Part shown: positions 2,521 to 61,749 of the stretch, piece by piece | Layout: each line of letters starts with the position of its first letter | Position numbering within the stretch: position 1 is the stretch's first letter | Source of the DNA: Sphingobacteriaceae bacterium | Lineage (GTDB): Bacteria; Bacteroidota; Bacteroidia; UBA7662 | Length of the DNA: 64,000 nt | Reading direction: 5' to 3' | NCBI GenBank assembly: GCA_013824115.1 | Contig: PNNG01000005.1 | Location: forward strand, 3,075-67,074 | Translations under genes and position numbers: made by a program | The notes under the pieces: generated by a model | Databases searched by the model: none | The model's input: only the letters and a program-made list of their open reading frames with translations | Told to the model about the DNA's origin: nothing

Positions 2521-4980
2521 ATGCGTCAATCCTATTACCTCATTCCCCTGCTGGCCCTCAGCATGGCCTGTGCTTCTAAAAAAACAACTGAAACAGCGCC
2601 TGCGCCAATAGCAGCCGCCGAAAAGCCGGCTTTTCAACCCGTTGAAGATTACCGCGCCACACGTCCACTCGACATGAAGATGGTGCACACCAAGCTCTAC
2701 CTCAAGCCCGATTTCAGCAAGGCATGGATGTATGGCACCGCCTATTTAACCGTAACACCGCATTTTTATCCCTCCAAAACCTTGGTGCTCGATGCCAAAG
2801 GTTTTGAAATCAAACGCGTGGAATGGGTGGGAGAAGATTTTTTTAAGCCCTTGGTGTACACCTACAATGGCTTGCAATTGACCATCGATTTGGGCCGGAT
2901 GGTAGAAGCCGGCACCAAGGTGCAGCTATTGGTCGACTACATCGCCAAGCCCAATGAGCTGAAAAACACCACTGGCAGTTCGGCCATTCAGGGCGCCAAA
3001 GGCCTCTATTTCATCAATCACGATGGTAAAGACCCGCACAAACCCATCCAAATGTGGACGCAAGGCGAAACCGAAAGCAATTCGTGCTGGTACCCTACCA
3101 TCGATGCGCCCAACCAAAAGACTTCGCAGGAAGTGTATTTGACAGTTGACACCACTTTTGTGACGCTCTCCAATGGCGAGCTGGTATATAGTACCGACAA
3201 TGGTGACGGCACACGTACCGATTATTGGTCGCAAAAGAAGGTGCATGCCCCCTACCTCACCATGTTGGCCGTGGGCAAGTTTGCGGTTCAGAAAGAAAGC
3301 TGGCGCGGCAAAGAGGTATCGTACTATGTAGAACCTGAGTTCGGTGCTTTTGCCCGCGACATTTATCCCAATACCGTGGAAATGCTGGAATTTTACAGCA
3401 ACCAATTGGGCGTGGAATATCCTTGGGACAAATACGCCCAGATAGCCGTGCGCGATTATGTTTCGGGCGCCATGGAAAATACCGGCGCGGTCATTTTTGG
3501 TGAATGGGCCCAGCGAACTCCCCGTGAAATGATCGACCGTACTGCTGAAAGCACCGTAGCCCACGAGTTGTATCACCATTGGTTTGGCGATTTGGTAACC
3601 TGCGAAAGCTGGAGCAACCTGCCCGTGAACGAGAGTTTTGCAACCTATGGCTCATACCTGTGGGACGAGCACAAATACGGCCGCATGGAAGCCGATTATG
3701 GCCTTTACGGAAATTTGCAGGGCTATTTGGCCGAATCGAAGCGCAAGCAAGTAGACATGGTGCGCTTTTATTACGACGACAAAGAAGACATGTTCGACAG
3801 CCACTCCTATGCCAAAGGCAGCCGGGTATTGCACATGCTCCGCACCGAGGTGGGCGATCAAGCTTTTTTCAAGTCGTTGCAATTGTTCCTCACCCGCCAT
3901 GCCCACCAAGCCGTAGAAATTCAGCAATTGCGCTTGGCCTTTGAAGAGGTAACTGGTCGCGATATGAACTGGTTCTTCAACCAGTGGTTCTACAGCAAGG
4001 GCCACCCCGTGCTCGACATCCGTTACGATTACGATGCCGAAACGGGCGAAGTGGTGGTACGCATGTCTCAGAAGCCTTCAGCTACAGATGGTCCGGTTTA
4101 CCGCCTGCCTATGCACATCGACATATACACTGCCGACAGCAAAACCACCCAGCGCGTGGTGCTCAGCCGCGATTCGCAGGAGTTCCGTTTCAAAAGCGAA
4201 CGGCCACTGTTGGTCAATGCCGATGCGCAGAAAGTGTTGCTGGGCGAAAAGAAGGAAAACAAAGACAAAGCCGCCTATGTGATGCAATTCCGTCGGGCAC
4301 CGCTCTTCTTGGATCATTTGGAAGCCCTTTTGTTTCTCCGCAATTTGAAATCAGATGCCGAAGCACGCGCTGTTTTTGTGGATGCTCTGGGACACGAGCT
4401 TTGGTTCATTCGCCAGTTTGCCATCCAAAACTTCGGTTTCGATAATTGGAAAAGCGACGCTGCTTTCCTCGCTGCATTGGAAAAACTGGCCAAAGAAGAC
4501 CCCAAATCGGCTGTTCGTGCGGCGGCCATCAGCAAATTGGGAGAAGCCAACGCCGCCGCTTATGTTGCGGTTTTTGAAGCTGCCGCCAAAAACGACAGCT
4601 CGTTCACGGTAGCTGCCGCTGCTTTGCGCCAATTGTCAACCAGTGAGCCCGAAAAGGCCTTGGCCTTGGCTGCCGGTTTTGAGAGCTTCCGCTCTATGAA
4701 CATGGCGGTAGCCGATTTATACGCCCGTGTAGGAGGGGCCAATAAGGCAGAGTATTTTGAATCGGCCTATGCCAAGCCCGCACAAGCCTTTGTGCGCGCC
4801 AACCTCTTGCAGAAATACAGCGAGTTAGCCCTGCGCCTCAAAGAGCCCGCTTTACTGCAACGGAGTTTAGATTTCATGCAAAAGGCAGGAAAGGAAGCCG
4901 GAACGGGCATTTTGGCCAGGGTGGCCGGACAGGAAGCGGCCAAGTTGCAGCAGGCCCTCGCACCGCCGGCGGGAAAATAA
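2521..4980 (+). CDS. M1-family zinc aminopeptidase, lipoprotein
   Basis: 819-aa ORF with a GAMEN motif (SGAMENTG) and a HELYHHWFGD zinc site followed by NESFATY. N-terminal lipobox LSMAC. Confidence 0.85.
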   Translation: MRQSYYLIPLLALSMACASKKTTETAPAPIAAAEKPAFQPVEDYRATRPLDMKMVHTKLYLKPDFSKAWMYGTAYLTVTPHFYPSKTLVLDAKGFEIKRVEWVGEDFFKPLVYTYNGLQLTIDLGRMVEAGTKVQLLVDYIAKPNELKNTTGSSAIQGAKGLYFINHDGKDPHKPIQMWTQGETESNSCWYPTIDAPNQKTSQEVYLTVDTTFVTLSNGELVYSTDNGDGTRTDYWSQKKVHAPYLTMLAVGKFAVQKESWRGKEVSYYVEPEFGAFARDIYPNTVEMLEFYSNQLGVEYPWDKYAQIAVRDYVSGAMENTGAVIFGEWAQRTPREMIDRTAESTVAHELYHHWFGDLVTCESWSNLPVNESFATYGSYLWDEHKYGRMEADYGLYGNLQGYLAESKRKQVDMVRFYYDDKEDMFDSHSYAKGSRVLHMLRTEVGDQAFFKSLQLFLTRHAHQAVEIQQLRLAFEEVTGRDMNWFFNQWFYSKGHPVLDIRYDYDAETGEVVVRMSQKPSATDGPVYRLPMHIDIYTADSKTTQRVVLSRDSQEFRFKSERPLLVNADAQKVLLGEKKENKDKAAYVMQFRRAPLFLDHLEALLFLRNLKSDAEARAVFVDALGHELWFIRQFAIQNFGFDNWKSDAAFLAALEKLAKEDPKSAVRAAAISKLGEANAAAYVAVFEAAAKNDSSFTVAAAALRQLSTSEPEKALALAAGFESFRSMNMAVADLYARVGGANKAEYFESAYAKPAQAFVRANLLQKYSELALRLKEPALLQRSLDFMQKAGKEAGTGILARVAGQEAAKLQQALAPPAGK

Positions 4981-5090: not shown

Positions 5091-5558
5091 ATGCTGAACA
5101 AGGTAAAGAACAAAGTTGCTAATGCCCTAGACCAGATTCTGGCCAACGGCGATCATTTTGTGGTGGAAGTGAAAATCACCGCCGACTTGCGCAAAATTTG
5201 GGTGGCCCTCGACGGCGACAACGGTGTAGACATTGACTATTGCGCCGAAGTAAGCCGGAAGTTGGGTGCCGAACTCGACGAGCTTGAAGATTTGGGTGCT
5301 TATGTACTCGAAGTAAGTTCGCCGGGTGCCGATGCGCCTTTGCGTTTTATCCGCCAGTATCCCAAACATGTGGGTCGCGAAATGAAGGTGAAGCTCACCG
5401 ATGGCAGTGAATTCAAAGGCGTGCTCGAAGCGGTTGGTACAGGTACGCTCAGCTTTGCCTATACGCACAAAGAAAAAGGCAAAAAGGCCGAGCAGCGCAC
5501 GCGCACTCTGCCTTTTGAAGAAGTAGAAACAGCAAAAGTTATCATATCCTTTAAATAA
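5091..5558 (+). CDS. rimP: Ribosome maturation factor RimP
   Basis: The ORF 5001-5558 is trimmed to the internal ATG (MLNKVKNK...). It sits immediately upstream of nusA-infB in the conserved rimP-nusA-infB order. The EVSSPGADAPL motif is typical of RimP. Confidence 0.8.
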   Translation: MLNKVKNKVANALDQILANGDHFVVEVKITADLRKIWVALDGDNGVDIDYCAEVSRKLGAELDELEDLGAYVLEVSSPGADAPLRFIRQYPKHVGREMKVKLTDGSEFKGVLEAVGTGTLSFAYTHKEKGKKAEQRTRTLPFEEVETAKVIISFK

Positions 5559-5564
5559 GAAAGC

Positions 5565-6803
5565 ATGAACAGCAGCGAACTGATCGAATCCTTTTCGGAG
5601 TTTAAAGAACTCAAGAATATCGATCGCGCTACCATGATGCGCGTCCTCGAAGACGTTTTCCGCAGCATGGTTCGCCGCAAATTCGGTACCGACGAAAATT
5701 TCGACATCATCCTCAACACAGAAAAGGGTGATTTGGAAATTTGGCGTAACCGCGAGGTAGTAGAAGACGCTTCAGAAGAAGCCGGTCAGACCGACAAAAT
5801 CACCTTGAGCGAAGCCCGCCAAATTGAGCCCGATTTCGAAGTAGGTGAAGAAGTGTCGGACGAAATCAAGCTCGAGCATTTTGGTCGCCGTTCGATTTTG
5901 GCAGCCCGCCAAACCCTGGTGCAGCGCATCCTGGAGCTCGAAAAAGACAACATCTACCAGAAATACAAAGACCGTGTAGGCGAAATCGTTACCGGCGAAG
6001 TGTATCAAATCTGGAAGAAGGAAATGTTGGTGCTCGACGATGAGGGCAACGAGCTCATCCTGCCCAAAAACGAGCAAATTCCTGCCGATTTCTACAAAAA
6101 AGGCGATGCCGTTCGCGGCGTGGTTTTGCGTGTAGAAACGCAGAATACCAGTCCCCGCATCATCATGAGTCGCACCGCACCGGCCTTCCTGGCGCGTTTG
6201 CTTGAGTTAGAAGTGCCCGAAATTTTCGACGGGCTCATCACTATCAAGAACATCGTGCGTGAGCCCGGCGAGCGTGCGAAAGTAGCCGTTGAAAGCTACG
6301 ACGACCGCATCGACCCAGTGGGTGCCTGCGTGGGCATGAAAGGCTCGCGTATCCACGGCATCGTGCGTGAATTGCGCAACGAGAGCATCGACGTGATCAA
6401 TTTCACCAACAATATGCAGCTGTTTATTACCCGTGCTTTGAGTCCGGCCAAAATCAGCAGCATGGAGCTCGACACCGACCGCAATAAAGCCAGCGTATAC
6501 CTCAAGCCCGACCAAGTGTCGTTGGCCATTGGTAAGGGCGGTCACAATATCCGCTTGGCTGCCAAGCTCACCGGTTTCGAAATCGACGTATTCCGCGATG
6601 TGGTAGAAGACGATAGCGATGTGGATCTGGACGAATTTGCAGACGAAATCGATAGCTGGATCATCGATGAACTAAAAGGCATTGGCCTCGATACCGCGAA
6701 AGCCGTTTTGGCTGTAGGTGCCGAAGAGCTGGTGCGCCGCACCGAACTCGAAGAAGAAACTGCCGCTCAGGTGTTGGCCATTCTTCGTGCCGAATTTGAA
6801 TAA
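5565..6803 (+). CDS. nusA: Transcription termination/antitermination factor NusA
   Basis: 412-aa ORF with an S1 domain and KH domains (VGACVGMKGSRI, AIGKGGHNIRLA) in the conserved operon context. Confidence 0.95.
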   Translation: MNSSELIESFSEFKELKNIDRATMMRVLEDVFRSMVRRKFGTDENFDIILNTEKGDLEIWRNREVVEDASEEAGQTDKITLSEARQIEPDFEVGEEVSDEIKLEHFGRRSILAARQTLVQRILELEKDNIYQKYKDRVGEIVTGEVYQIWKKEMLVLDDEGNELILPKNEQIPADFYKKGDAVRGVVLRVETQNTSPRIIMSRTAPAFLARLLELEVPEIFDGLITIKNIVREPGERAKVAVESYDDRIDPVGACVGMKGSRIHGIVRELRNESIDVINFTNNMQLFITRALSPAKISSMELDTDRNKASVYLKPDQVSLAIGKGGHNIRLAAKLTGFEIDVFRDVVEDDSDVDLDEFADEIDSWIIDELKGIGLDTAKAVLAVGAEELVRRTELEEETAAQVLAILRAEFE

Positions 6804-9911: not shown

Positions 9912-9937
9912 GGGCCAATCGGCTCATAAAAGAAAAG

Positions 9938-9964
9938 CCGCTTCCGAAAGGGGGCGGTTTTTTT
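9938..9964 (+). terminator. Rho-independent terminator of infB
   Basis: Hairpin ccgcttcc-GAAA-gggggcgg (8 bp including G-U pairs) followed by a T-run at 9958-9964. Confidence 0.7.
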
Positions 9965-10031
9965 GTTGGGAAGAGATGAAAATCTGCTGCTGTTGGCTGT
10001 TTAGCCCCTTTGGCCATCCAAAACCGAAATG

Positions 10032-11108: not shown

Positions 11109-11200
11109 TATGACTTCGAACGCGTGGTGAAGGCCAAGCTATAAGGGCCTATTGGCTCATGAATAAAGAAGCCGCTTCCGAAAGGGGGCGGCTTTGTTGT
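11109..11200 (+). repeat. Displaced, diverged second copy of the infB 3' end plus terminator hairpin
   Basis: It reads ...DFERVVKAKL* followed by gccgcttccgaaagggggcggc. The infB end reads ...[11 protein letters not shown] followed by the same hairpin at 9870-9964. Roughly 80% identity by eye, with a one-codon indel. Confidence 0.85.
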
Positions 11201-11246
11201 TTGCAGGGAGTGTATGTGATTGATGCTTATTATTCGCTGTGCCACG

Positions 11247-25254: not shown

Positions 25255-25463
25255 ACTTTGAATCCCGAATTGCCCCCGGCTCTCGGGATGTCGCTTCGCT
25301 CCACTTTGAATCCCGAATCCCCGAATCGCTTTTGGCTCTCGGGGCAGGCGCCCCCGGCTCTCGGGATGTCGCTTCGCTCCACCTTGAATCCCGAATCCCC
25401 GAATCGCTTTTGACTCTCGGGGCAGGCGCTTTTGGCTTTCGGGATTTCGCTTCGCTCAACCTT
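25255..25463. repeat. 78-bp tandem repeat, about 2.5 copies
   Basis: Copy 1 (25273-25350) and copy 2 (25351-25428) are nearly identical: cccccggctctcgggatgtcgcttcgctccacYttgaatcccgaatccccgaatcgcttttgRctctcggggcaggcg. Partial diverged copies lie on both sides. Confidence 0.85.
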
Positions 25464-36554: not shown

Positions 36555-37061
36555 TTGAGCGATTACCATTGGTACGCTGCTTACACCTTGCCGCGGTATG
36601 AAAAAAGGGCAAAGCTGCAGCTCGACAAACAGGGCATAACCAATTGGCTGCCCTTACAACGACTACGCAAACGCTGGAGCGACCGTTGGAAGTGGGTGGA
36701 AGAGCCGGTATTCAGGTCGTATTTGTTTGTGCATATCAGTGAGCGCGAGTATTTCCAAACCCTCAATTCCTATGGCATTGTGCGTTTTGTAGCATTCAAC
36801 GGTCAGGCAGTGCGCATACCCGACAGCCAAATGGATTTTCTACGCCGCATGCTCGATACGGGTTACGAATTGGAAGCTACGGAGCTCGATTTGTCGCCCG
36901 GCGACCGCGTAGAAGTGCTTACTGGCCCATTGGCTGGCCGACAAGGCATATTGATTCAAAGGGCCGGCGATAAGAAATTCAGAATTGATCTCGATTTTAT
37001 GGGACAGTCGGTTTTTGTAACCGTACCTATTGAAAATCTCACCAAGGAATTAACGGCTTAA
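36555..37061 (+). CDS. UpxY-family NusG-like transcription antiterminator
   Basis: NGN domain (WYAAYTLPRYEKRAKLQL...PVFRSYLFV) plus a KOW motif (GDRVEVLTGPLAGRQGIL). Confidence 0.75.
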   Translation: MSDYHWYAAYTLPRYEKRAKLQLDKQGITNWLPLQRLRKRWSDRWKWVEEPVFRSYLFVHISEREYFQTLNSYGIVRFVAFNGQAVRIPDSQMDFLRRMLDTGYELEATELDLSPGDRVEVLTGPLAGRQGILIQRAGDKKFRIDLDFMGQSVFVTVPIENLTKELTA

Positions 37062-37693
37062 AGTAGTCCGGCTTTTTGAAGACTGGGCAACAAAGGTGCG
37101 TTTTGCGGATGCAGCAAGGTCTGTAGGCCTTTGGCTTGTGCTCCTAGGAGGTGGCCAGCAGAGTCGTCGATGAAAAGTGTATGGGCCGGATTAAACGCTC
37201 CCTGTTCAACCACATAGGCAAATACGGGAGGCTCTGGTTTTCTTAAACCCATTTGCTGAGAGTAATAAATGCGATCGAAGAACTTGCTCAGTTTTTCACC
37301 TGGATGGCTCTGTTCGAATTCCGCCTCCAGCGCTTCTACGTGCAAGCTGTTGGTATTGCTGAGCAGTACCACATCGCAGTGATTGCGTAGCGGTTGAATC
37401 AATGCGAGTTGATCTAATTGTACGCGGCCTAAAATCGCATTCCAGCAAGCGGCATATTGCTCGTGGCTAAAGTGCCTTCCAAAAGTGGTGGCAAGGGTAT
37501 CTAAAAATTGAGCGGTATGAATGTGCCCGGTTTCGTAGGCATCAAAGAACTTTTCGTTCTGAAGTTTTTCGAGGGTGGGTGCCACCTCTTTGCCTACCAA
37601 TTGCTGCAAACTGTACGCAAAGCGGTCCATATAAACATCTATGAACAAGCCTCCGAGGTCGAAGATGAGGTGGTGAATGGGTGGCTGCATGGC
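37058..37693 (-). CDS. HAD-superfamily hydrolase
   Basis: Motif I is HLIFDLGGLFIDV; later motifs are LLSNTN and FIDDS. The ORF is trimmed to the ATG at 37693. Confidence 0.75.
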   Translation of the reverse strand, partial: AMQPPIHHLIFDLGGLFIDVYMDRFAYSLQQLVGKEVAPTLEKLQNEKFFDAYETGHIHTAQFLDTLATTFGRHFSHEQYAACWNAILGRVQLDQLALIQPLRNHCDVVLLSNTNSLHVEALEAEFEQSHPGEKLSKFFDRIYYSQQMGLRKPEPPVFAYVVEQGAFNPAHTLFIDDSAGHLLGAQAKGLQTLLHPQNAPLLPSLQKAGLL

Positions 37694-37734
37694 GTAACAA
37701 TTAAAAGGCCGCACCTAAGTGCGGCCTTTGCCCG

Positions 37735-37808
37735 TGGGCCCTGCTGGGCTCGAACCAGCGACCCTCTGATTATGAGTCAGATGCTCTAACCTGCTGAGCT
37801 AAGAGCCC
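37735..37808 (-). tRNA. tRNA-Met (anticodon CAT; an Ile2/lysidine identity cannot be excluded)
   Basis: The reverse complement GGGCTCT-TA-GCTC-AGCAGGTTA-GAGC-A-TCTGA-CTCATAA-TCAGA-GGGTC-GCTGG-TTCGAGC-CCAGC-AGGGCCC-A folds as a cloverleaf. CCA is not encoded. It is not initiator-like, because the anticodon stem lacks the 3 GC pairs. Confidence 0.85.
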
Positions 37809-37819
37809 CAATGGGAGAG

Positions 37820-37827
37820 CAAAAGTA
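37820..37827 (-). promoter_or_regulatory. -7 box TACTTTTG for tRNA-Met
   Basis: On the minus strand, tacttttg lies 11 nt upstream of the tRNA 5' end. Confidence 0.4.
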
Positions 37828-37883
37828 ACCAAAATGTATCTATCCGCTAATGTTCGCCCCAAAAAAACTGAACTTTTACCATT

Positions 37884-37908
37884 AAAAAAGCCCCAATGAA
37901 GGGGCCTT
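37884..37908 (-). terminator. Rho-independent terminator of the small secreted-peptide gene
   Basis: The minus strand reads aggcccc-ttcat-tggggct followed by tttttt. Confidence 0.5.
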
Positions 37909-37932
37909 TAATCGGTTAGAAAAGACTGCTTA

Positions 37933-38118
37933 TTAAGCGTCCTTCTTTTTACTGCAGCAAGCCTTGCCTTCACCTTCGGCAGGAGCGCAAGACTTTTTTT
38001 CTTCCGTTTGCTCGGTTTTGGTGGCTTCTTTTTTCTTCTTCTTTTTATCGCCATCGCCGGCATAGCTGATTACGGCTACAGCCGAAACGAGCAGGAGGGT
38101 CATTAAAATCTTTTTCAT
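37933..38118 (-). CDS. Small secreted Lys/Glu-rich, Cys-containing protein (hypothetical)
   Basis: 61-aa ORF. A signal peptide (MKKILMTLLLVSAVAVISYA) is followed by GDGDKKKKKKEATKTEQTEEKKSCAPAEGEGKACCSKKKDA. It has its own terminator. Confidence 0.45.
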   Translation of the reverse strand: MKKILMTLLLVSAVAVISYAGDGDKKKKKKEATKTEQTEEKKSCAPAEGEGKACCSKKKDA

Positions 38119-38198
38119 CGGAGTGTGATTTTTATCAATAGAGGAAACGAATATACGTAATTATCAGAACTTTGTTGTGCCCTAGGGGTTTTTTTCGC

Positions 38199-39791
38199 AT
38201 GCAGGAACAGTTCGATTTTATAGTAGTGGGCTCGGGCATAGCCGGACTCAGTTTTGGTTTGAAAGCCGCACGTTTGGGCAAAGTGTGCATCATCACCAAA
38301 AGCGACGAAGACGAATCGAACACCAAATATGCCCAGGGGGGTGTGGCGGTAGTGACCGATTTGCTTAAAGACAGCTTCGACAAACACGTGGCCGATACCC
38401 TCGATGCCGGCGATGGTGCCTGCAAATTGCCAATTGTGGAAATGGTGGTGCAAGAAGGTCCGGCCCGCATACAGGAAGTGATTGACATGGGCGCTCAATT
38501 CGACCGCGACGAGCACGGCAGCTACGACCTCGCCCGAGAAGGGGGCCACAGCGTAGGTCGCGTGCTGCACCACAAAGACATGACGGGCTTCGAAATTGAG
38601 CGCACCCTGCTGAGCCAGGTATACGAACACCCCAACATCACCCTTTACAGCCACAAATTCGCGGTTGACCTCATTACCCAACACCATTTGGGCGAGGAGG
38701 TGACCAAAAAGCGAACCGACATTTGCTGCTATGGCATCTACGCCCTCAATACGGCCAGCAGGGAAATTGAGACCATCCTTGGCAGGGTAGTAGTATTGGC
38801 TACAGGCGGGGCCGGACAGGTGTACAGCACCACTACTAATCCGCTCATTGCCACTGGCGACGGCATTGCCATGGCTTACCGGGCCAAAGCGCGCCTCGAG
38901 AACATGGAATTCATCCAGTTTCACCCCACGGCCTTGTACAATCCGGGTGAGCACCCTGCTTTCCTCATTTCGGAGGCGGTTCGTGGTTATGGCGGGGTGC
39001 TCAAAGACATCCATGGGAATGCCTTCATGGACAGATACGACAAGCGCAAATCATTGGCCCCACGCGATATCGTTGCTAGGGCCATTGACAGCGAGCTGAA
39101 AAAATCGGGTGCCGATTATGTGCTGCTTGATGCCACGCACATTCCCAAAGCCACCATGCTGTCGCATTTCCCCAACATCTACCAAAAATGCCTCGATATC
39201 GGTATCGACATGGCCAAGGAGCCGGTTCCGGTGGTGCCTGCCATGCACTATTTGGTAGGCGGCATCAAGGTAGATGAGCAGGGCCGTACCAGCATTCAAA
39301 ACCTGTATGCTTGTGGCGAATGTGCGAGTACAGGATTACATGGGGCCAATCGATTGGCGTCGAACTCACTGCTCGAAGCTGTGGTATTTGCCGACCGCAT
39401 TTTCCGCGATGTAGAGGGCCGCTGGCAGCAGATTGATTTCCGCAGCGACATTCCGGCCTGGAACGATGAAGGAACTTCGGTGCCCGACGAGCAGATCCTC
39501 ATCAGCCAGAATTTGCGCGAAACCCAGGCCATCATGAGTGCGTACGTAGGCATTGTGCGCAACGATTTGCGTTTAGAGCGGGCCTTTAACCGCCTGCATA
39601 TCTTGCATCAGGAAACCGAGTGGTTGTATGCCAAAAGTAAGTTGTCGGTGCCTTTGCTGGAGCAGCGTAACATCCTCAAAGTGGCTTACTGCATCATCAA
39701 ATCGGCCCGGCAGCGCACCGAAAGCCGCGGATTGCACTACACCACCGACTACCCCGGCAAACAAGCGCCTTTTGTGGGGACGGTGATATGA
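38199..39791 (+). CDS. nadB: L-aspartate oxidase
   Basis: FAD-binding N-terminus FDFIVVGSGIAGLS, the motif RSLAPRDIVARAI, and a C-terminal ...ESRGLHYTTDYP. The ORF is trimmed to the ATG at 38199. Confidence 0.9.
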   Translation: MQEQFDFIVVGSGIAGLSFGLKAARLGKVCIITKSDEDESNTKYAQGGVAVVTDLLKDSFDKHVADTLDAGDGACKLPIVEMVVQEGPARIQEVIDMGAQFDRDEHGSYDLAREGGHSVGRVLHHKDMTGFEIERTLLSQVYEHPNITLYSHKFAVDLITQHHLGEEVTKKRTDICCYGIYALNTASREIETILGRVVVLATGGAGQVYSTTTNPLIATGDGIAMAYRAKARLENMEFIQFHPTALYNPGEHPAFLISEAVRGYGGVLKDIHGNAFMDRYDKRKSLAPRDIVARAIDSELKKSGADYVLLDATHIPKATMLSHFPNIYQKCLDIGIDMAKEPVPVVPAMHYLVGGIKVDEQGRTSIQNLYACGECASTGLHGANRLASNSLLEAVVFADRIFRDVEGRWQQIDFRSDIPAWNDEGTSVPDEQILISQNLRETQAIMSAYVGIVRNDLRLERAFNRLHILHQETEWLYAKSKLSVPLLEQRNILKVAYCIIKSARQRTESRGLHYTTDYPGKQAPFVGTVI

Positions 39792-39819
39792 TTGATTTTT
39801 GTTAGATTTGTATAAAGAG

Positions 39820-40038
39820 ATGGATATGAGCAAGGTAGTTGTTGAACTTAAGCACAAAAATGCATTAGCACTGCTTCAACAGCTGGAGGCATTGAAGGTC
39901 ATCATGCTCGACGCTTCCCAAACTGCTAAGCAAACAAGTAAACTCTCTGATAAGTACAAAGGCACGTTTTCAAAGGAAGACGCGGACAGCTTTGATGCCA
40001 ACACCTACCAATCGAGAAACGAATGGAGCGGTTCCTAA
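39820..40038 (+). CDS. Putative antitoxin of the PIN module (hypothetical small protein)
   Basis: Intact ORF of about 72 aa (MDMSKVVVELKHKNALALLQQLEAL...). It overlaps the start of the downstream PIN reading frame by 16 nt, which is a classic TA layout. Confidence 0.5.
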   Translation: MDMSKVVVELKHKNALALLQQLEALKVIMLDASQTAKQTSKLSDKYKGTFSKEDADSFDANTYQSRNEWSGS

Positions 40039-40400
40039 TTGACAACAATGTGCTTTCTCGCTTCCTATCAGAAGAATTAACTCATGCCGGTTTAATCCTT
40101 GTAGAGTAAGCATTTAATCAAGTACCCATCATTTCGGTCATCACCCAAATAGAAGCTTTATCATGGGTTCATTCGGACAAAGAGAAGGAAAGAATCATAT
40201 CCGAATTGGTGCAGGACTCCATTGTAATTCCCCTTTCTGATGAAATTGTTAGCCATTGTATCCGACTTAGGCGAGGTAGAAAAATGAAGACACCTGATGC
40301 CATTATCGCTGCCACCGCCATTGCACATGATTTAACACTTTTATCGTTCGACCAAGGATTTGAGGGGATTGGTGGCTTAAAATGGAAACAACCCATTTAG
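40023..40400 (+). pseudogene. PIN-domain (VapC-like) toxin gene interrupted by an in-frame TAA
   Basis: A single frame reads MERFLIDNNVLSRFLSEELTHAGLILVE-TAA(40107-40109)-AFNQVPIISVITQIEALSW...TPDAIIAATAIAHDLTLLSFDQGFEGI. It shows PIN-like acidic positions (D7, E in QIE, D in TPDAIIAATA). Confidence 0.7.
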
Positions 40401-40500
40401 AGCAATAAACGTCATTCCGCCAAACACCCCCAGTACATCATTTTGTAATCAAAATGGGTGAAAAAGCCCGTATGTGCAGCACAAACACATCAAACCATTC

Positions 40501-40592
40501 AATCGGCCCGGCAGCGCACCGAAAGCCGTGGATTACACTTCACCACCGACTACCCCGGCAAACGAGCGCCTTTTGTGGGGACGGTGATATGA
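40501..40592 (+). repeat. Second copy of the last 92 bp of nadB (direct repeat)
   Basis: Segment 40501-40592 matches 39700-39791 with 4 mismatches in 92 (my alignment), including the stop codon. Confidence 0.9.
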
Positions 40593-40600
40593 ATAAAGGG

Positions 40601-40917
40601 TTATTGCCCCTTCGATTGTAAAATTTCAAGCAGTTGCTTTGGGTCCTGTCTGCTGTCCCAAAAGGACATGATGACAATGTCCTCCTCAGAAGCCATATCG
40701 CATATTGAAAAATGCCCAATGTAGCAATCTGAATATCGGGAAACTTGGTCGATTTGAAGATTTTTGGTTTCTCTGCAATCAAAGCGGTTTTCTGCGCTAT
40801 CAGTCCTAATAGGTGTTTTGGATATGTATTTGACTTGTTCCGATGAAGCCAATACTCAAGGACCGCTGTTAATTGTTTATCGGCCGTTTGCGACCAAATT
40901 ATTTGCCGTTGAGCCAT
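40601..40917 (-). pseudogene. RelE/ParE-family toxin gene with a frameshift
   Basis: The N-terminal part (MAQRQIIWSQTADKQLTAVLEYW...KIFKSTKFPDIQIA) is in one frame. The family-typical C-terminus (YIGHFSICDMASEEDIVIMSFWDSRQDPKQLLEILQ*) is in another frame and ends at 40601. The junction is near 40714-40745. Confidence 0.65.
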
Positions 40918-41141
40918 TCCAAGTTCCTTTGCATCAAGGCCTCTTGCGTTATGGTTCGTCCTTCTTGTAAGTCCTCAAGACTCATTTCAAGCATAATTCG
41001 CTGCTCTGGTGTCAAATCAGTAATTGCCTTCTGCTGGCCATTTGCAGCTACCAATTCATCAAGAACCATGAGAAACTCTTTGTCTTGAATAAATTGAATT
41101 TTTTGAATCAACCCTGTTTTAAGCGCTTTTACTGTGCTCAT
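40899..41141 (-). CDS. Putative antitoxin of the ParE module
   Basis: Intact 80-aa ORF that overlaps the toxin start by 19 nt. Typical addiction-module-component layout. Confidence 0.5.
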   Translation of the reverse strand: MSTVKALKTGLIQKIQFIQDKEFLMVLDELVAANGQQKAITDLTPEQRIMLEMSLEDLQEGRTITQEALMQRNLEWLNGK

Positions 41142-41242
41142 TTGGCAATCATTACGGTTGATTCAAATATACAAAAAGACGCATCAACCTGCTTCGTGAA
41201 AAGACTCATCTTCGTCGCCAAGCTGCCTATACCATCTACGAA

Positions 41243-42052
41243 TTAATCAAAGGTAATTTTTCCCACCTTCCCCCGGTAATACTCAAAAGCGCCTTCCTCG
41301 GGCAACTGCCACAAGGCACGCATGGCATAGGGCAGACGCAAGCCATTTTTCTCTTTGTAGCTATCGATGAATATGTAAAAAGGCTGTTTTTGGTAAACGC
41401 CCTTTCCTGCATCGTAAAAGCGGTCGAAGCTTTCGAACTTGCGGCAAAGACCCTCTTCATCGAAATAGAAACGGCCTTTTACCGTAAACCCACCATCGGT
41501 AAGGGTGCCTTCTACCACCTGCTCATTGATTTGCTCCCAGCGCACACTCGGATGAAAAAGCGCCCCGGGTACCAACACCATTTCTGCAAAGGCAGTAACG
41601 AGCGCCGATTGTCCAACAGCTCGGTTATTCGCATGGATCAGTCGCAGCCGGTGGAACAATTTGCCATTCATTTCGCCATATCCGTTGAGGTATAAATCGC
41701 GGCCCGAAAGCGGCATGCTTTGAAACTGCATCCAGCTACTCCGTGCCAAAGGCAGTACGTTATTGTATTGTTCGGTTTTGAGCTCACCCCATTCGCGGTT
41801 CATGCCCAATTTCAAATAGCTCTGCTCCCACGAAATCACAGCTCCTCCGTGCATGGGTTGATTCTCAAATCCCGTTGCACGCAAATATTGCTGCCAAAGC
41901 GGAGGCAGGCTTGCGATGCCAACGGAATCAAAACGGTCGGGCCCCGTTTTGGTACGTTCGGTTTGAAACGCAGTCTTTTCTTCGAGGTACATTTGTTCGG
42001 GTGTAGAACAGGCGGCAAAAGCAGCAAAAAGCAAAAGGAAGATGCGTTTCAT
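41243..42052 (-). CDS. Hypothetical lipoprotein (possibly DUF6544-like, unverified)
   Basis: 269-aa ORF with the lipobox FAAFAAC. Confidence 0.55.
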   Translation of the reverse strand: MKRIFLLLFAAFAACSTPEQMYLEEKTAFQTERTKTGPDRFDSVGIASLPPLWQQYLRATGFENQPMHGGAVISWEQSYLKLGMNREWGELKTEQYNNVLPLARSSWMQFQSMPLSGRDLYLNGYGEMNGKLFHRLRLIHANNRAVGQSALVTAFAEMVLVPGALFHPSVRWEQINEQVVEGTLTDGGFTVKGRFYFDEEGLCRKFESFDRFYDAGKGVYQKQPFYIFIDSYKEKNGLRLPYAMRALWQLPEEGAFEYYRGKVGKITFD

Positions 42053-42061
42053 GTAGCAAAA

Positions 42062-44008
42062 TTACCGGTTTAAGAGCGATATCTTCTGCACCTGCCTGTC
42101 GTTTTCATTTTGCCAGGCAAGTACGTACAAACCGGGCTTCCAGGCCGCTTCCCACGGCAAAATGACGCTGCGTTCTTTAGCCATGGGTCGGTATTGCCAT
42201 AACAGGCGGCCCTGCATATCAAAAAGCTGCAAAGTTTCATTGCCTGAAGCATCGAGGGGCAGCTCGAGCTGCCACAAGCCATCGCCCGTAAGCACTTTCA
42301 AAGCGCGGCCAACATCGGCCGACTGGCGCTGCACCACAGGCGGTAGCATGAGGATGTTGATATCGGGATCAAAAACCAAGCTGTCAATTGTACTCGGCAT
42401 CTCAAATGTATAAACTTGTTGACTGCCATCGAAGGGCAGACGCAAATCAAGGCTATCGCCCCCGAGGTACAAACGCACGGGCAGGTCGAGCTTGAAAGGG
42501 AAAAGGCGCGCATCGGGACTCAACTGCTGAACGTGAAGCCGCAATCGCTCCCCCTCTTGTGACCAGCGCAGTCGATACCTCGGATAACCTTCGCCATAAA
42601 TGTAGCGTTCGAAATAATTGCGCAAGTCTTTGCCGCTTGCCCGCTCCAAGTGGTAGCGAATATGCTCGGTAGTAGCGAACGACCACTGCAAGGCGGGGTT
42701 GTTGAGGTAGTTACGCAATCCAGCAAAAACCGCCGAATCGCCCAGCTGATACCGCAAGGCATGCAACACAAAACTGGCTTTGTGGTAAGTGAGGCGTTGG
42801 AAAAAAATGGTGGTGGTTAATGCCGTATCGCGCACATAAATACTTCCTTGAGGCACTTGCCATGCCGACTCCAAACTGGTTTGCTTCCAGCGTGGCCACC
42901 AATAACCATCGTCGAGTAAATCTTCGAGGCACAAACTTACCATCCAGGTAGCAAAGCCTTCGTTTACCCAAATGTCGCGCCAGCTGGCGCAGGTCACCAT
43001 ATTGCCAAACCATTGGTGGGCGAGTTCATGGGCCATCAAGCTGTAATCCCAACCGCCCATGCTGCTCATGGTGCTGTGCTCCATGCCTCCCGAAAATATG
43101 CTGATTTGCATGTGTCCGTATTTTTCGCGCAGGTAGGGGTATGGCCCAAAGCGCTCACTGAAACGCTGCACCATGGGTGGAAAAAGTTCACGCAAACGTG
43201 GATAGGCATAAGCGGTATCGTGGTCGTACACGTAATTGAGCACATATACGGTATCGCTGGTGCCATTTACTGGAATGCGCTGCTCGAGCACTTCGTACTT
43301 ACTCACCGCCAAGCCAAGCAAATAAGGGGGCATGGAGTAGCTGTGCTCCCAGTAATAAACCACCCTGTTCCCAAGGGTGTCGATGCGCTGCAAATTACCC
43401 GGACCGCCAACCCGCATGCCCAGCGGAATATTGGCCACCAAACGCGTGGTATCGGCGCGGATGCCCAAGGGCTGAAAGGACGGCCACCAATCGCGACAAC
43501 CGTAAGGCTGCGAAAGGGTCCACAAAACGGGAACGCTGTCGGGGCCATGTTTGGCAATCATAAACGAGCCAAAACCGTTGGGATTTACTGGCGGTACACC
43601 CGCATAGCGGATCGTAAAGCGGAAAATACTGTCGGCAGGCCAACCGGCCGGACCTCGGTTGAGCCAGAGCTGCAGGGCGGTTTGACGAAAGGTTAGCGGG
43701 CCTTGGGGCGTCCAAGCTGAATCAACGCGCAGGGCTTGGTCCAGGTCGACTGCCAGTTCGGACCGTGCCGATGAAAGGCTGAGCACATATTCCACCTCAC
43801 CGGCAATGTAGCGTTGGTCGGGGTTGAGCGTAATGCGCAACTCTTGGCTTTGGATCCGTACGGGCATATAATCGGCACTCACCTGGCTGCGTGCATGCGG
43901 GCGGAGGTGGTGCTGCTCCAAGTGCTTACATCCGGCATGGTTGAGCGGACTTTGCCCCCGCGACGAAAGTGATGTAAAGAGAAAAGCGATGAATATAAAC
44001 CGACGCAT
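42062..44008 (-). CDS. M1-family metallopeptidase with T9SS C-terminal sorting domain
   Basis: A GGMEHSTM motif, the HELAHQWFGN zinc site with WVNEGFATW, a signal peptide from MRRFIFIAF, and a C-terminal segment of about 80 aa (TLQLFDMQGRLL...PGLYVLAWQNENDRQVQKISLLNR) typical of a Por/T9SS CTD. Confidence 0.85.
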   Translation of the reverse strand: MRRFIFIAFLFTSLSSRGQSPLNHAGCKHLEQHHLRPHARSQVSADYMPVRIQSQELRITLNPDQRYIAGEVEYVLSLSSARSELAVDLDQALRVDSAWTPQGPLTFRQTALQLWLNRGPAGWPADSIFRFTIRYAGVPPVNPNGFGSFMIAKHGPDSVPVLWTLSQPYGCRDWWPSFQPLGIRADTTRLVANIPLGMRVGGPGNLQRIDTLGNRVVYYWEHSYSMPPYLLGLAVSKYEVLEQRIPVNGTSDTVYVLNYVYDHDTAYAYPRLRELFPPMVQRFSERFGPYPYLREKYGHMQISIFSGGMEHSTMSSMGGWDYSLMAHELAHQWFGNMVTCASWRDIWVNEGFATWMVSLCLEDLLDDGYWWPRWKQTSLESAWQVPQGSIYVRDTALTTTIFFQRLTYHKASFVLHALRYQLGDSAVFAGLRNYLNNPALQWSFATTEHIRYHLERASGKDLRNYFERYIYGEGYPRYRLRWSQEGERLRLHVQQLSPDARLFPFKLDLPVRLYLGGDSLDLRLPFDGSQQVYTFEMPSTIDSLVFDPDINILMLPPVVQRQSADVGRALKVLTGDGLWQLELPLDASGNETLQLFDMQGRLLWQYRPMAKERSVILPWEAAWKPGLYVLAWQNENDRQVQKISLLNR

Positions 44009-45834: not shown

Positions 45835-45941
45835 TCATTTCAAAGATAACCCGCTTTTTTCATTTTTCATAAGAATTTTGAAAACCTATTTTCATTTTTC
45901 ATAAGAATTTTGAAATCTCGTTTTCATTTTTCATAGAAATC
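45835..45941. repeat. 32-nt tandem repeat, 3 copies (plus-strand unit ttttcatttttcataagaattttgaaa)
   Basis: Plus-strand units begin at 45857, 45889 and 45921, giving an exact 32-nt period. A degenerate copy lies at about 45831. Confidence 0.8.
45841..45848 (-). promoter_or_regulatory. -7 box TATCTTTG upstream of the ATPase gene
   Basis: The minus strand reads gggtTATCTTTGaaatgaaaatcgtaaaATG. The box ends 16 nt before the ATG. Confidence 0.4.
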
Positions 45942-59275: not shown

Positions 59276-59295
59276 AATGGAGGCATAAAAAAAGA

Positions 59296-59318
59296 GCCGC
59301 TAGCGAAAACTAGCGGCC
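59296..59318. terminator. Bidirectional hairpin terminator within an extended palindrome
   Basis: gccgctag-cgaaaa-ctagcggc, flanked by an A-run upstream and a T-run downstream. The palindrome extends to ggcataaaaaaa...ttttttatgcc (59282-59329). Confidence 0.65.
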
Positions 59319-59322
59319 TTTT

Positions 59323-61749
59323 TTATGCCTTTTTCTTTAGAAAAGGAGCGGCCAGCGCTCCCAAGCAAATCAGCAATAAGAGGATGCTTGCAGCCAAGCT
59401 AATTTTTTCGCCTCTATAGTAGGTATCGGGCTCGAAGCGGAATTCAATTTGGTGTTGGCCGGCTGGAATTACCATCGCACGGAAAAGATAATCTGCCCTG
59501 AAATGTGGTGCCTCTTGCCCATCTACAAAGGCCTTCCAACCCTTTTCATAGTACACTTCCGAAAACACTGCCAATTGCTCGCTGGCAGCAGTAAAATCAT
59601 ACACCAACTTTTCGGGGTGATAAGAAATAAGACGAATACTGGCCGTGCTATCGGGCGTAAAGGATTTGCCCTCTACAAAAGAGGCGAAGCGCTGATCAAC
59701 CACTGCGGTTTGGCGCAATGAAATAGCCGGATTGCCCATGGTGTCGATTTCGGCGCGCGCATTGGGCACCATCAACACATTGCTCACCAGCCAGGCATTT
59801 CCATACGCATCGGGATTAAACTGCGGGATAAGACCCACCCCCTCTTGGTTGGTAATGAAGTAGCGGGTGTTGAAGGCGTTCAGGACCCCCATATTGCCTG
59901 TTTCGAGCCATTGAACTTTTACGTCTTCGTAACGGCTCAACTTAGCAGCGTGGTAACCTCCCAACGATTTGTGGAAGTAGCCTGCACGGTTTTCATTGAA
60001 TGGATTGCGGTTACCGAGGTCATAAACGCGATAGTGCAGGGTGGTATCTTGCAAAATTTGTAAATCGGCGGGGGTAGCTTCAAAGGGCTGCTCCACTTGG
60101 CGCTTGTTTACAAAATCTTCTTCGTTGAGGTAGCGTTTGTTGGTGGCCCATAAGTCGACCGTATTGGCAACCAAAAACACCACTACCATCCGCTGAACAC
60201 TCAGTTTTCCTTGCAAATGATACCAAATGGCACCAAAGCCCAAGGCCACCAAAAGCAATGACTTAATGGCATCGCTGCGTAACATGCTGGCACGGTCTGC
60301 CATCAGGGCATCGGCCAAACCAGGGAAATTGCTAAAGTTGGCATCTACAGGCGCCGTGAAGTCGAAAAATAGCCCGGGAGCCAGCACAAAAAGGGCGCAA
60401 AAACCGCCCACCAAAGCACCGGCGTACATGAGGCCCTTTTTCAACTTTTCCTTCGCAAGCTCACCCGCCTCCATGCGCTTGAGTAAAATCATGGCAAGTA
60501 GGGGAAACGCCAGGCTGGCAATGACCAAACTCATGGCCACGGCCCTGAACTTGTTGTAATAAGGCACATGGTTGAAAAAGATATCGGTAAGCAGTTCAAA
60601 GTTTTTGCCCCAACTCAATACAATCGACAATAAGGCCACACTTCCGAGCCACCATTTAGCTGGACCATCGAGTACAAACAACGCGAGTACAAACAAAAAC
60701 ACAATCAACGCACCGAAATAAGTGGGTCCGGCTACCCCTGGTTGATCACCGAAGTACGTGGGTGCTTGTTTTACGAACGATTGTGCCTGCGCACGCGGTA
60801 CACCTCCCCGTGTAAGTACCTCATAAGTTTCGCTGTTTTCGCCAATACTGCTTCCCGAGGCTCCACCATGAAAGTTAGGGATGAGTATGGTAAAGCTTTC
60901 GGCAATGCCATTGCTCCAGCGCAGGGCATATTCTTTATCGAGCCCGGTAGCACCGCTCTCACCAGCTGCGCGTAATTCAGAGCCGCCGCGCATGGTTTCT
61001 TTACTGTATTCGTTGGTAATGCTGAAGGAGGTGAAATTGGCGGCAACAGCCAATACCAAGGCGGCAACCGATAATCCGCTGGCAGTAGCAAAAAGTGCCA
61101 GTTGCTTTTTGCGCACGAGGTCAATGCCTTTTACCAGCACGTACAAGGCAATCATCATCCCCAAATAGTAGGTGATTTGATAATGGTAAGCATACAGCTG
61201 CAAAGCCAACATGAAAGAAAGCAGCGCAAAACCACTCAAAAACTTGCCTCTGAACAATAAAATTAACGCACCCAATACAGGTGGCATAAAGCCAATGGCA
61301 ATGGCCTTGGTGATGTGCCCCGCATCAATAATAATGAGGTTGTATGTAGAAAACCCAAAAGCAAATGCTCCTAATAATCCTTGCCAAGGCGAAAATCCCA
61401 GCAGCACCATTAACAGGTAAAAGCCCAAGAAATAGAGCAAAAGCAGATTCGCGGGATTGGGAAGCCACTTATACACAATGCCCCCCACTTGGGCAATCCA
61501 CATATTGGGCACATCCATCGCAATTTGATAGGCTGGCATGCCTCCAAACAATGCGTTTGTCCATAACGGATATCGTCCTTCTTTTTCCTTGTAGTCGTTC
61601 AGCTCTTTCGACATGCCCGCAACCTGCGTCATATCTTCCATGCGTAAGCTTTTACCCGTGAGCACCGGGCTGTTGTAAATGATGGCAGCCGCCAACATGA
61701 TTAAGATGACCCACAGGTGTGGCAACCAGTTTTTAAAGTTAATTCCCAT
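59323..61749 (-). CDS. YfhO-family polytopic membrane protein (putative glycosyltransferase)
   Basis: 808-aa ORF with many TM helices in the first two thirds, a large soluble C-terminal domain and a final TM. N-terminus as in Bacteroidota YfhO-like proteins (from memory). Confidence 0.7.
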   Translation of the reverse strand: MGINFKNWLPHLWVILIMLAAAIIYNSPVLTGKSLRMEDMTQVAGMSKELNDYKEKEGRYPLWTNALFGGMPAYQIAMDVPNMWIAQVGGIVYKWLPNPANLLLLYFLGFYLLMVLLGFSPWQGLLGAFAFGFSTYNLIIIDAGHITKAIAIGFMPPVLGALILLFRGKFLSGFALLSFMLALQLYAYHYQITYYLGMMIALYVLVKGIDLVRKKQLALFATASGLSVAALVLAVAANFTSFSITNEYSKETMRGGSELRAAGESGATGLDKEYALRWSNGIAESFTILIPNFHGGASGSSIGENSETYEVLTRGGVPRAQAQSFVKQAPTYFGDQPGVAGPTYFGALIVFLFVLALFVLDGPAKWWLGSVALLSIVLSWGKNFELLTDIFFNHVPYYNKFRAVAMSLVIASLAFPLLAMILLKRMEAGELAKEKLKKGLMYAGALVGGFCALFVLAPGLFFDFTAPVDANFSNFPGLADALMADRASMLRSDAIKSLLLVALGFGAIWYHLQGKLSVQRMVVVFLVANTVDLWATNKRYLNEEDFVNKRQVEQPFEATPADLQILQDTTLHYRVYDLGNRNPFNENRAGYFHKSLGGYHAAKLSRYEDVKVQWLETGNMGVLNAFNTRYFITNQEGVGLIPQFNPDAYGNAWLVSNVLMVPNARAEIDTMGNPAISLRQTAVVDQRFASFVEGKSFTPDSTASIRLISYHPEKLVYDFTAASEQLAVFSEVYYEKGWKAFVDGQEAPHFRADYLFRAMVIPAGQHQIEFRFEPDTYYRGEKISLAASILLLLICLGALAAPFLKKKA

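Follow-up and report, generated by a model that had tools for sequence, protein, structure and literature searches.

A 64,000-nt stretch of Sphingobacteriaceae DNA (hereafter the window, whose numbering is used for all positions) carries, at the 3′ end of the L-aspartate oxidase gene nadB, a small toxin-antitoxin (TA) cassette of the VapBC kind, which lies between the working tail of nadB and a second copy of that tail. On balance, we favour the view that this repeat is the footprint of a Campbell-type insertion of VapBC into the nadB 3′ end, one that preserved the tail of the gene and was followed by homologous recombination of the RecA type. The view is drawn from alignments between the window and related metagenome assemblies, whose loci and proteins are referred to by L and P numbers respectively. 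The repeat and the cassette, here called VapBC1, comprise the following features.

38199–39791, plus strand: intact nadB, coding for the L-aspartate oxidase of 530 aa; repeat copy 1 is formed by its final 92 nt.
39700–39791, plus strand: repeat copy 1 (attL-like), the working nadB tail, TGA included.
39820–40038, plus strand: VapB1-like antitoxin gene, 72 aa, an intact open reading frame (ORF) overlapping the start of the PIN gene (ATG at 40023) by 16 nt.
40023–40400, plus strand: VapC1 (PIN toxin) pseudogene, PF01850, with a CAA to TAA nonsense change at 40107–40109 (Q29*).
40401–40500, plus strand: non-coding right end of the cassette, which in the relative L081 holds a 291-bp insert resembling a MITE, a transposable element of the miniature inverted-repeat class.
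40501–40555, plus strand: left 55 nt of repeat copy 2, the cassette-linked part.
40556–40592, plus strand: right 37 nt of repeat copy 2, displaced TGA included; strain-specific and continuous with the native downstream DNA.

An earlier note on this DNA had described a direct repeat of the nadB 3′ end, with four mismatches in 92 positions, bracketing an antitoxin/PIN cassette, and had proposed a pairwise alignment of the two 92-mers. The alignment bears the description out: 39700–39791 and 40501–40592 differ at exactly four sites, which in the nadB frame represent two synonymous changes (CGC/CGT and TTG/TTA) and two conservative ones (TAC/TTC, Y to F, and CAA/CGA, Q to R). The Y/F difference is uninformative as to which copy is native, both states being common among relatives. 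A repeat search of the window recovers the pair as a single two-copy family of 97 nt (39695–39791 and 40496–40592; 94% identity, spacing 801), while a 45-nt pattern from the repeat, with up to three mismatches allowed, matches only twice in 64 kb and in 0 of 100 shuffles. Neither the repeat search nor the pattern scan found a third copy or a larger bracket in the window, and a tandem-island model was rejected on the lack of a third copy. The right end of the repeat is exactly the nadB stop codon. No stable DNA fold was found at the repeat, since both copies and the right end of the cassette behave like shuffled sequence (z-scores of −0.54 to +0.42); an attC-like or hairpin site was rejected for this reason. 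An Rfam scan of 37000–43000 returned a tRNA-Met only.

Beyond copy 2, the locus continues with a second TA module on the opposite strand and then with a conserved flanking gene.

40601–40917, minus strand: ParE-like toxin pseudogene, frameshifted by a 1-nt deletion between 40714 and 40715, so that it reads in two frames.
40899–41141, minus strand: antitoxin gene of the ParE module, 80 aa, intact ORF.
41243–42052, minus strand: DUF6544 gene (Pfam PF20181/PF21900), the conserved right flank, present in all related loci.

The GC content falls from 0.50–0.59 in nadB to 0.39–0.44 across 39800–41300. We compared the nadB downstream region, as the earlier note had suggested, in sixteen related metagenome assemblies found by protein searches and exact-protein look-ups, and the gap that separates nadB from the DUF6544 gene was seen in six states. 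It is empty in L091, where the two genes are 56 bp apart; it contains the ParE module alone in L085–L090, with the module stop 8 nt beyond that of nadB; VapBC2, a second VapBC type, by itself in L084 and L173; a decayed VapBC2 in L174–L176; VapBC1, the nadB tail copy (nadB′) and VapBC2 in L081, where the MITE-like insert interrupts the right end of the cassette; and VapBC1, nadB′ and ParE in the window, in L172 and partly in L082 and L083. On this sequence comparison, the nadB–DUF6544 gap is a polymorphic hotspot. The notion of a single island reaching to about 41160 survives only in part. The accessory stretch is real and extends to about 41242, given the empty gap of 56 bp in L091, but it consists of two modules with separate histories: the ParE module directly follows nadB, without VapBC1 or a repeat, in L086, L087, L089 and L090, and VapBC1 with nadB′ precedes a different module in L081. 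Outside this group the arrangement was not seen, since no second nadB tail lies within 6 kb in any of 80 species-representative relatives (a test that misses larger islands) and the closest of them, with a NadB of 78% identity, has no insert; hence nadB is not a general site for small inserts.

The duplication follows the cassette. Two tails are found wherever VapBC1 is present and a single tail in every relative checked that lacks it (L084–L091, L173 and L174); among these there is no second copy without an insert, an arrangement which the earlier note had recognised as fatal to its own proposal. It had likewise recognised the danger of an assembly artefact. Four independent assemblies span both junctions, and the layout recurs among them with the same spacing of 801 bp, or 801 bp plus the 291-bp insert, in L172 and L081, and partially in L082/L083. 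A fresh target duplication, or the joining of two strain variants of the nadB end during assembly, might be suspected because the copies are near-identical in the window (4/92) and because the window derives from a metagenome-assembled genome (MAG). The same architecture is however present in independent assemblies from other samples (L081, L172 and L082/L083), the repeat is shorter than a normal read pair, copy-specific substitutions are conserved across strains and the structure is common to lineages diverged by approximately 15%. We therefore attach next to no likelihood to a recent event or an artefact, and consider both effectively refuted.

The age of the structure is apparent from the divergence of its carriers. 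The cassette of the window is 84.6% identical to that of L082, while the DUF6544 genes are 80% and the ParE modules 75% identical; the nadB of L082 itself falls outside its contig, and for nadB of the L082-type background (L085/L086) the identity to the window is 87%. The earlier note had read the high identity of the two copies as a sign of a recent event, or of gene conversion between them. The first of these fails, since the cassette and second copy are shared by lineages whose nadB differ by 13%, DUF6544 genes by 20% and cassettes by 15%. Gene conversion is a reasonable explanation: within a genome the two copies are 88–96% alike, differing at 4 (window), 6 (L081) and 11 (L172) of 92 sites, and certain sites vary in concert. 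At repeat positions 56 and 67 both copies in the window have C and C, and both copies in L081 and in L172 have G and A; the two copies of L172 also agree at position 71 (G) and position 40 (T).

The second copy is not uniform along its length. In L082, copy 2 and the sequence that follows it match the cassette-free strain L086 with 100% identity, from the working nadB tail into the DNA downstream, over 82 nt and beyond, and for this reason we regard copy 2 as the displaced native tail; in L081, copy 2 and what follows it resemble the L084 nadB tail with its own downstream sequence. The left 55 nt of copy 2 show 0–1 differences among the window, L081 and L172, and carry T/A/T at three sites where the accompanying copy 1 and cassette-free L084 have C/G/A (the exception is L172, whose copy 1 also has T at the third site). 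Its right 37 nt show 6–11 differences among the same three strains and run into strain-specific downstream DNA. Comparison of the strains shows copy 2 to be chimeric, the left 55 nt being linked to the cassette and the right 37 nt and downstream DNA belonging to the local strain background. Such a hybrid would be expected when a unit with its own nadB-tail segment recombines with the resident tail.

The reading that we favour would have the cassette enter through a single crossover between nadB and a circle with a nadB-tail segment, in the manner of Campbell, or equivalently through a double crossover with its two arms in the body of nadB and in the 92-bp nadB′ copy. Homologous recombination of the ordinary RecA type would then move the cassette among related strains and delete it, and the same process would keep the two copies alike by gene conversion; for as long as the toxin works, post-segregational killing would penalise loss of the cassette by recombination between the repeats. 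We prefer this reading because it accounts for the chimeric copy 2, the three downstream contexts and the presence/absence polymorphism in two species, as well as for the lack of a recombinase, the lack of hitch-hiking sequence and the concerted sites. It also agrees with the model of TA islets proposed for Photorhabdus (PMC13617665).

Several points weigh against it. No circle, deletion product or recombination event has been observed, the basis being comparison of assemblies; only four cassette-bearing lineages were found, all of them metagenome assemblies whose contigs could be strain chimeras; and the argument from gene conversion is based on 3–4 sites. For the first insertion, the reading has to suppose a source for a circle that already carried a nadB tail. 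Moreover, the three strains of the window's species all have their copy 2 junction within one 15-nt interval (CACCACCGACTACCC); we estimate a probability of about 0.02–0.08 for this if crossovers were random, and a site-specific core would also predict it.

This shared interval is one of the arguments for a different origin, in which the locus would be what is left of an element that integrated site-specifically, for instance a prophage, an integrative and conjugative or mobilizable element (ICE/IME) or a satellite, and whose attP imitated the final 92 nt of nadB. Its integrase and other parts would have been deleted, or the cassette mobilised in trans, leaving an edge VapBC between attL and attR; the attP would hold AATCGGCCCGGCAGCGCACCGAAAGCCGTGGATTACACTTCACCACCGAC next to VapBC1. 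Copy 2 has the hybrid P-O-B′ pattern expected of an attR, the repeat terminates exactly at a stop codon both here and in L097 (described below), which is typical of att sites that restore a gene tail, and a gene-end duplication with the target gene restored is what is seen (a 92-nt repeat and an intact nadB). Precedents exist in the e14 prophage, into which icd extends and at whose far end icdC remains as a C-terminal pseudogene (PMC13626634), and in SGI1-type islands, which are reported to integrate at the 3′ end of trmE. Set against this, an integrase-type gene is absent within approximately 5–8 kb in all related loci (no such Pfam family occurs in any annotated relative), the window has neither a third copy nor a larger bracket, and the 80 species-representative relatives lack a second nadB tail within the 6 kb covered, larger islands being missed. 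Scans of viral contigs with a nadB-tail DNA pattern and peptide yielded no contig with such a segment, and searches of plasmids and phages with the cassette DNA and VapC1 yielded neither the cassette nor a VapC1 homologue. All four cassette-bearing lineages have the minimal 709-bp content, such that any reduction predates their split, and the junction in L082 lies about 10 nt from that of the other three. We consider a site-specific remnant unlikely, if still the main rival to our reading.

Divergence within the window's species speaks to a further alternative. Among its cassette-bearing strains, divergence is 5.1–8.6% in the 408 nt of nadB that lie upstream of the repeat, 2.2–5.4% in copy 1 and 3.0–3.4% in the cassette; the cassette therefore has a more recent coalescence than its left flank, and no linked nadB haplotype travels with it. 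This suggests later horizontal spread, and runs counter to a single ancient duplicative insertion with both copies originally native, followed by vertical inheritance, repeated loss and gene conversion, whether it began with the filling-in of a long staggered break, with illegitimate recombination facilitated by homology or with a template switch in the course of repair. A random stagger would also fail to predict repeats that end exactly at stop codons in two unrelated cases, and the copy 1 tails vary among strains and match local cassette-free alleles (one difference between L172 and L084). The ancient insertion does find some support: between the two species the cassette has diverged about as far (15%) as the backbone (13–20%); copy 2 shares T/A/T with the outgroup L001 and could be a fossil of an older nadB tail; and a 3-nt microhomology, CAT, lies immediately to the left of the repeat. 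The bracketing repeats in the cassette family range from 22 to approximately 240 nt (299 nt for the uvrC tail at the second L097 cassette), a spread that argues against an enzyme with a fixed stagger and for recombination or repair. Taken together, we think an ancient insertion of this kind improbable.

The contents of the cassette are minimal. Only two small genes, the 72-aa ORF and the PIN gene, occupy the 709 bp between the copies, with no integrase or recombinase among them. The VapB1-like protein has no Pfam or NCBIfam match, and a homologous small gene precedes the PIN homologues in L081, L097, L112 and L172. Residues 5–117 of the VapC1 read-through protein match PF01850 (E 1.9e-13, 51.5 bits), as do more than 400 VapC1 homologues. 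In an alignment of 34 sequences the PIN acidic residues D7, D92 and D110 are invariant and E44 nearly so, and all four codons are kept in the window. By its PIN domain, these acidic residues and the overlapping upstream antitoxin gene, the cassette is assigned to the type II VapBC modules, although the window lacks an intact toxin frame. The PIN gene, which the earlier note had placed beside a small intact ORF, is itself not intact, for there is an in-frame TAA at 40107–40109; this is a nonsense mutation, because the nearest homologues have Q (CAA, P0001) or K (P0002) at codon 29, the relatives reading CAA or AAA there. A remnant of 90 aa is what has been annotated for this gene. Exact-protein look-ups of both window antitoxins, and of P0003, gave no match.

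Twelve nucleotides after the nadB stop, at 39803–39810 on the plus strand, the sequence TAGATTTG matches the consensus of the Bacteroidota −7 promoter box, TAnnTTTG, and is probably the cassette's own promoter. There is no properly spaced −33 TTTG near it, and the full Bacteroidota promoter pattern has no match at the cassette; scans of the locus for sigma-70 promoters and terminators were uninformative. No terminal inverted repeats (TIRs) were found at the cassette ends among 13 inverted-repeat pairs in 37000–43000, and the cassette was rejected as a transposon, insertion sequence or MITE, given the absence of TIRs and a duplication of 92 nt rather than a short one. The insert in the non-coding right end of the L081 cassette is of another kind. 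It spans L081:8435–8725 (291 bp), has perfect 19-nt TIRs (TCATTGTCGTTTAGTTAAG and CTTAACTAAACGACATTGA) and a duplicated AATCAAAAT target (an 8–9-nt duplication), and looks like a MITE; its TIR is absent from the 64-kb window. Two contigs belonging to separate ENA assemblies end at the same base inside the VapB1 gene (L082:1 and L083:1), a hint of polymorphism between strains, or of a branch in the graph, at this site.

The second module begins nine bases after copy 2, and the ORFs at 40601–41141 confirm the oppositely oriented antitoxin/ParE pair that the earlier note had placed there. The toxin genes of the two modules are not intact, both being pseudogenes in the window. The 1-nt deletion in ParE is evident as a gap in the alignment with five relatives; when the frame is repaired, the window ParE scores 20.5 bits against PF05016, below the cut-off of 23, while the intact alleles of L086, L087, L089 and L090 carry this domain. 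The 80-aa antitoxin has no Pfam or NCBIfam match, and the same gene is called in L082, L085–L090 and L172.

Toxin decay extends across the relatives. VapC1 is interrupted by Q29* in the window and by S16* in L172, and is intact in L081 and L082. ParE has the frameshift in the window, W24* in L085 and L088 and another nonsense change in L082/L083, and is intact in L086, L087, L089, L090 and L172. VapC2 is intact in L084 and L173, contains a stop and a frameshift in L081 and is reduced to fragments in L174–L176. There are seven different lesions across three toxin genes in about 16 assemblies, and the lesions are independent in each lineage. The antitoxins, by contrast with the two dead toxins, are intact in the window, and gene calls give them their full length in those relatives that carry ParE or VapBC1 modules. 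Because both toxins are dead in this genome, we infer that the locus is a decaying TA islet with two orphan antitoxins, presumably free to be lost.

The host gene itself is in good order. The NadB protein exceeds the cut-offs of NCBIfam NF006567 (631.2 bits against 629) and TIGR00551 (542.7 bits against 452.75), has the expected Pfam domains FAD_binding_2 and Succ_DH_flav_C and is identical to NCBI MBA4302845.1 (P0255). Sequence comparison reveals nadB as a mosaic among strains; in L084, for example, nadB is window-like (92.7%) but the DUF6544 gene is only 80.6% identical. No other 13-aa stretch of the protein varies as much among 24 close strains as residues 518–530 (window 39750–39788), whose mean pairwise difference is 0.22 against 0.026 (rank 1 of 518). 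At least ten different C-terminal tails occur, for instance YPGKQAPFVGTVI, HPGKQVPFVETVI and YPAKRQSFTETVI. This variable tail fits repeated recombination there, and may be a scar of insertion and excision; it may alternatively reflect relaxed constraint on the C-terminus.

A second rearrangement point was observed on the other side of nadB, at the tRNA-Met gene (37734–37808, minus strand) and upstream of it. In relatives with near-identical nadB, the DNA upstream of a gene for a 61-aa lysine-rich lipoprotein is either NusG-HAD-tRNA-Met or a block with uracil phosphoribosyltransferase (UPRTase) and no tRNA, and L081 has extra genes inserted on both sides of this region. Two further contigs, L046 and L071, carry a nadB of Chitinophagales type (60% identical to that of the window) in MAGs named Bordetella parapertussis and Hyphomicrobiales, and are probably mis-binned.

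An alignment of the PIN family, used to scan metagenomes, retrieved 80 unrelated loci, one of which, L097, is an independent analogue. There, the tail of a 479-aa gene is present in two copies (50 nt, 92%) with a homologous antitoxin/PIN cassette between them, and the stop codon is again where the repeat ends. Roughly 1 kb beyond this, another antitoxin/PIN cassette (5213–5790), unrelated to the first, lies between uvrC and a copy of the uvrC tail (4590–4887 and 5932–6230, minus strand; 299 nt, 83%). In L097, therefore, each of two TA cassettes located between convergent genes is accompanied by a duplicate of the neighbouring gene's tail. Such gene-tail duplications are rare elsewhere, and none was found in 966 kb of control loci. 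The proposition that such duplications are common around TA cassettes failed, with clear cases only in the nadB lineage and L097 in 1.4 Mb examined. Direct repeats of any kind bracket the cassette tightly in 9 of 60 loci, against 0.23% of control positions; this enrichment is real but heterogeneous, including repeats of the repetitive extragenic palindromic (REP) type and promoter or terminator look-alikes, and we have not built upon it. No conserved motif was seen downstream of the PIN gene across the 80 family loci, and hence there is no evidence for a shared recombination site.

These observations touch on a bolder form of the homologous-recombination reading, in which the cassette would be a mobile unit guided by homology and independent of any recombinase, with its copy of the target-gene tail as a built-in homing arm. 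Recombination between the tails would release a circle of cassette and one tail, RecA in a naive related cell would re-insert the circle into nadB without damage to the gene, and the TA pair would punish those cells that lose the cassette through the same repeats. We regard this as speculative, and unlikely on present evidence. If it were true, the tail duplications of L097 and the hypervariable NadB C-terminus would be footprints of a wider life cycle in Bacteroidota.

Other repeats were encountered in these loci and in the window. In L112 (3519–3709 and 4400–4652) and at the same positions in L116, a homologous VapBC cassette is surrounded by copies of a non-coding unit, two of them upstream and two to three downstream. 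The unit is about 110 nt long, contains a pair of small hairpins (GTAGTC-ACA-GACTAC and TCCGCAGAT-GGA-ATCTACGGA) and has no Rfam match. The window contains two tandem, intergenic copies of a 78-nt unit at 25272–25427 (97% identical), two tandem copies of a 32-nt AT-rich unit at 45854–45917 (94%) and three copies of a 40-nt terminator-like hairpin element (AAAAGAAAAGCCGCTTCCGAAAGGGGGCGGTTTTTTTGTT; 70–88% identity) at 9928–9967, 11162–11201 and 59287–59326.

Among known systems, the insertion of e14 or phage 21 in icd provides a close parallel in outcome. There, as here, the insert lies within the 3′ end of a housekeeping gene, a near-identical replacement tail keeps the gene functional and the displaced tail persists as a downstream pseudogene fragment (icdC). 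The e14 element of E. coli K-12 is 15 kb long with SOS-linked, site-specific excision, and recombination between the tails deletes the insert and leaves a chimeric gene (PMC13626634). The insert described here differs in being 709 bp long, with an antitoxin and a PIN gene alone and no integrase found nearby. SGI1-type islands resemble it in the use of a gene-end site (the trmE 3′ end), direct repeats at the borders and a gene that stays functional, and are unlike it in being large, encoding their own integrase and being mobilised by conjugative plasmids. Integron cassettes are small and promoter-proximal, are often TA modules and are arranged head to tail with repeats of 60–140 nt between them. 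In the window the repeat is instead a coding gene tail without an attC-like fold, the second module is inverted and intI is absent from the surroundings; an integron cassette was rejected, there being no attC-type palindrome (fold z-scores close to zero) and no integrase in the vicinity.

A further counterpart is found in Photorhabdus, where Belot et al. (Mol Biol Evol 2026) described TA islets without mobile-element genes, in which pseudogenisation affects the toxin first, and proposed that these spread via homologous recombination at core genes on either side (PMC13617665). Both settings have TA modules alone between core genes, presence/absence polymorphism and several TA types per spot. 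One Photorhabdus operon lies between two copies of a 24-bp sequence, which is a res-like palindrome and is tied to Tn3 (PMC13617665). In the present case, in Bacteroidota, what has been duplicated is a 92-nt coding segment of the adjacent core gene, and no trace of a transposon is seen. An explicit description of TA cassettes flanked by duplicated host-gene tails was not found in the literature. Current views are not overturned by a fairly ordinary, if well documented, gene-swapping hotspot. It does offer a population-level case of TA pairs entering, moving and decaying in chromosomes without a mobility gene of their own, and bears on how the smallest selfish modules move, a question left open by recent literature. 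It also supplies a natural series of toxin inactivations, and a caution for annotation, in that the nadB-like fragments and the PIN and ParE genes here are pseudogenes. The duplicated core-gene tail is an easily searched footprint, and raises the testable idea that a short borrowed homology is enough for a cassette to spread. In sum, the locus is a TA islet in a core-gene hotspot, of an otherwise known kind, distinguished by the duplication of a coding tail and the lack of a recombinase.

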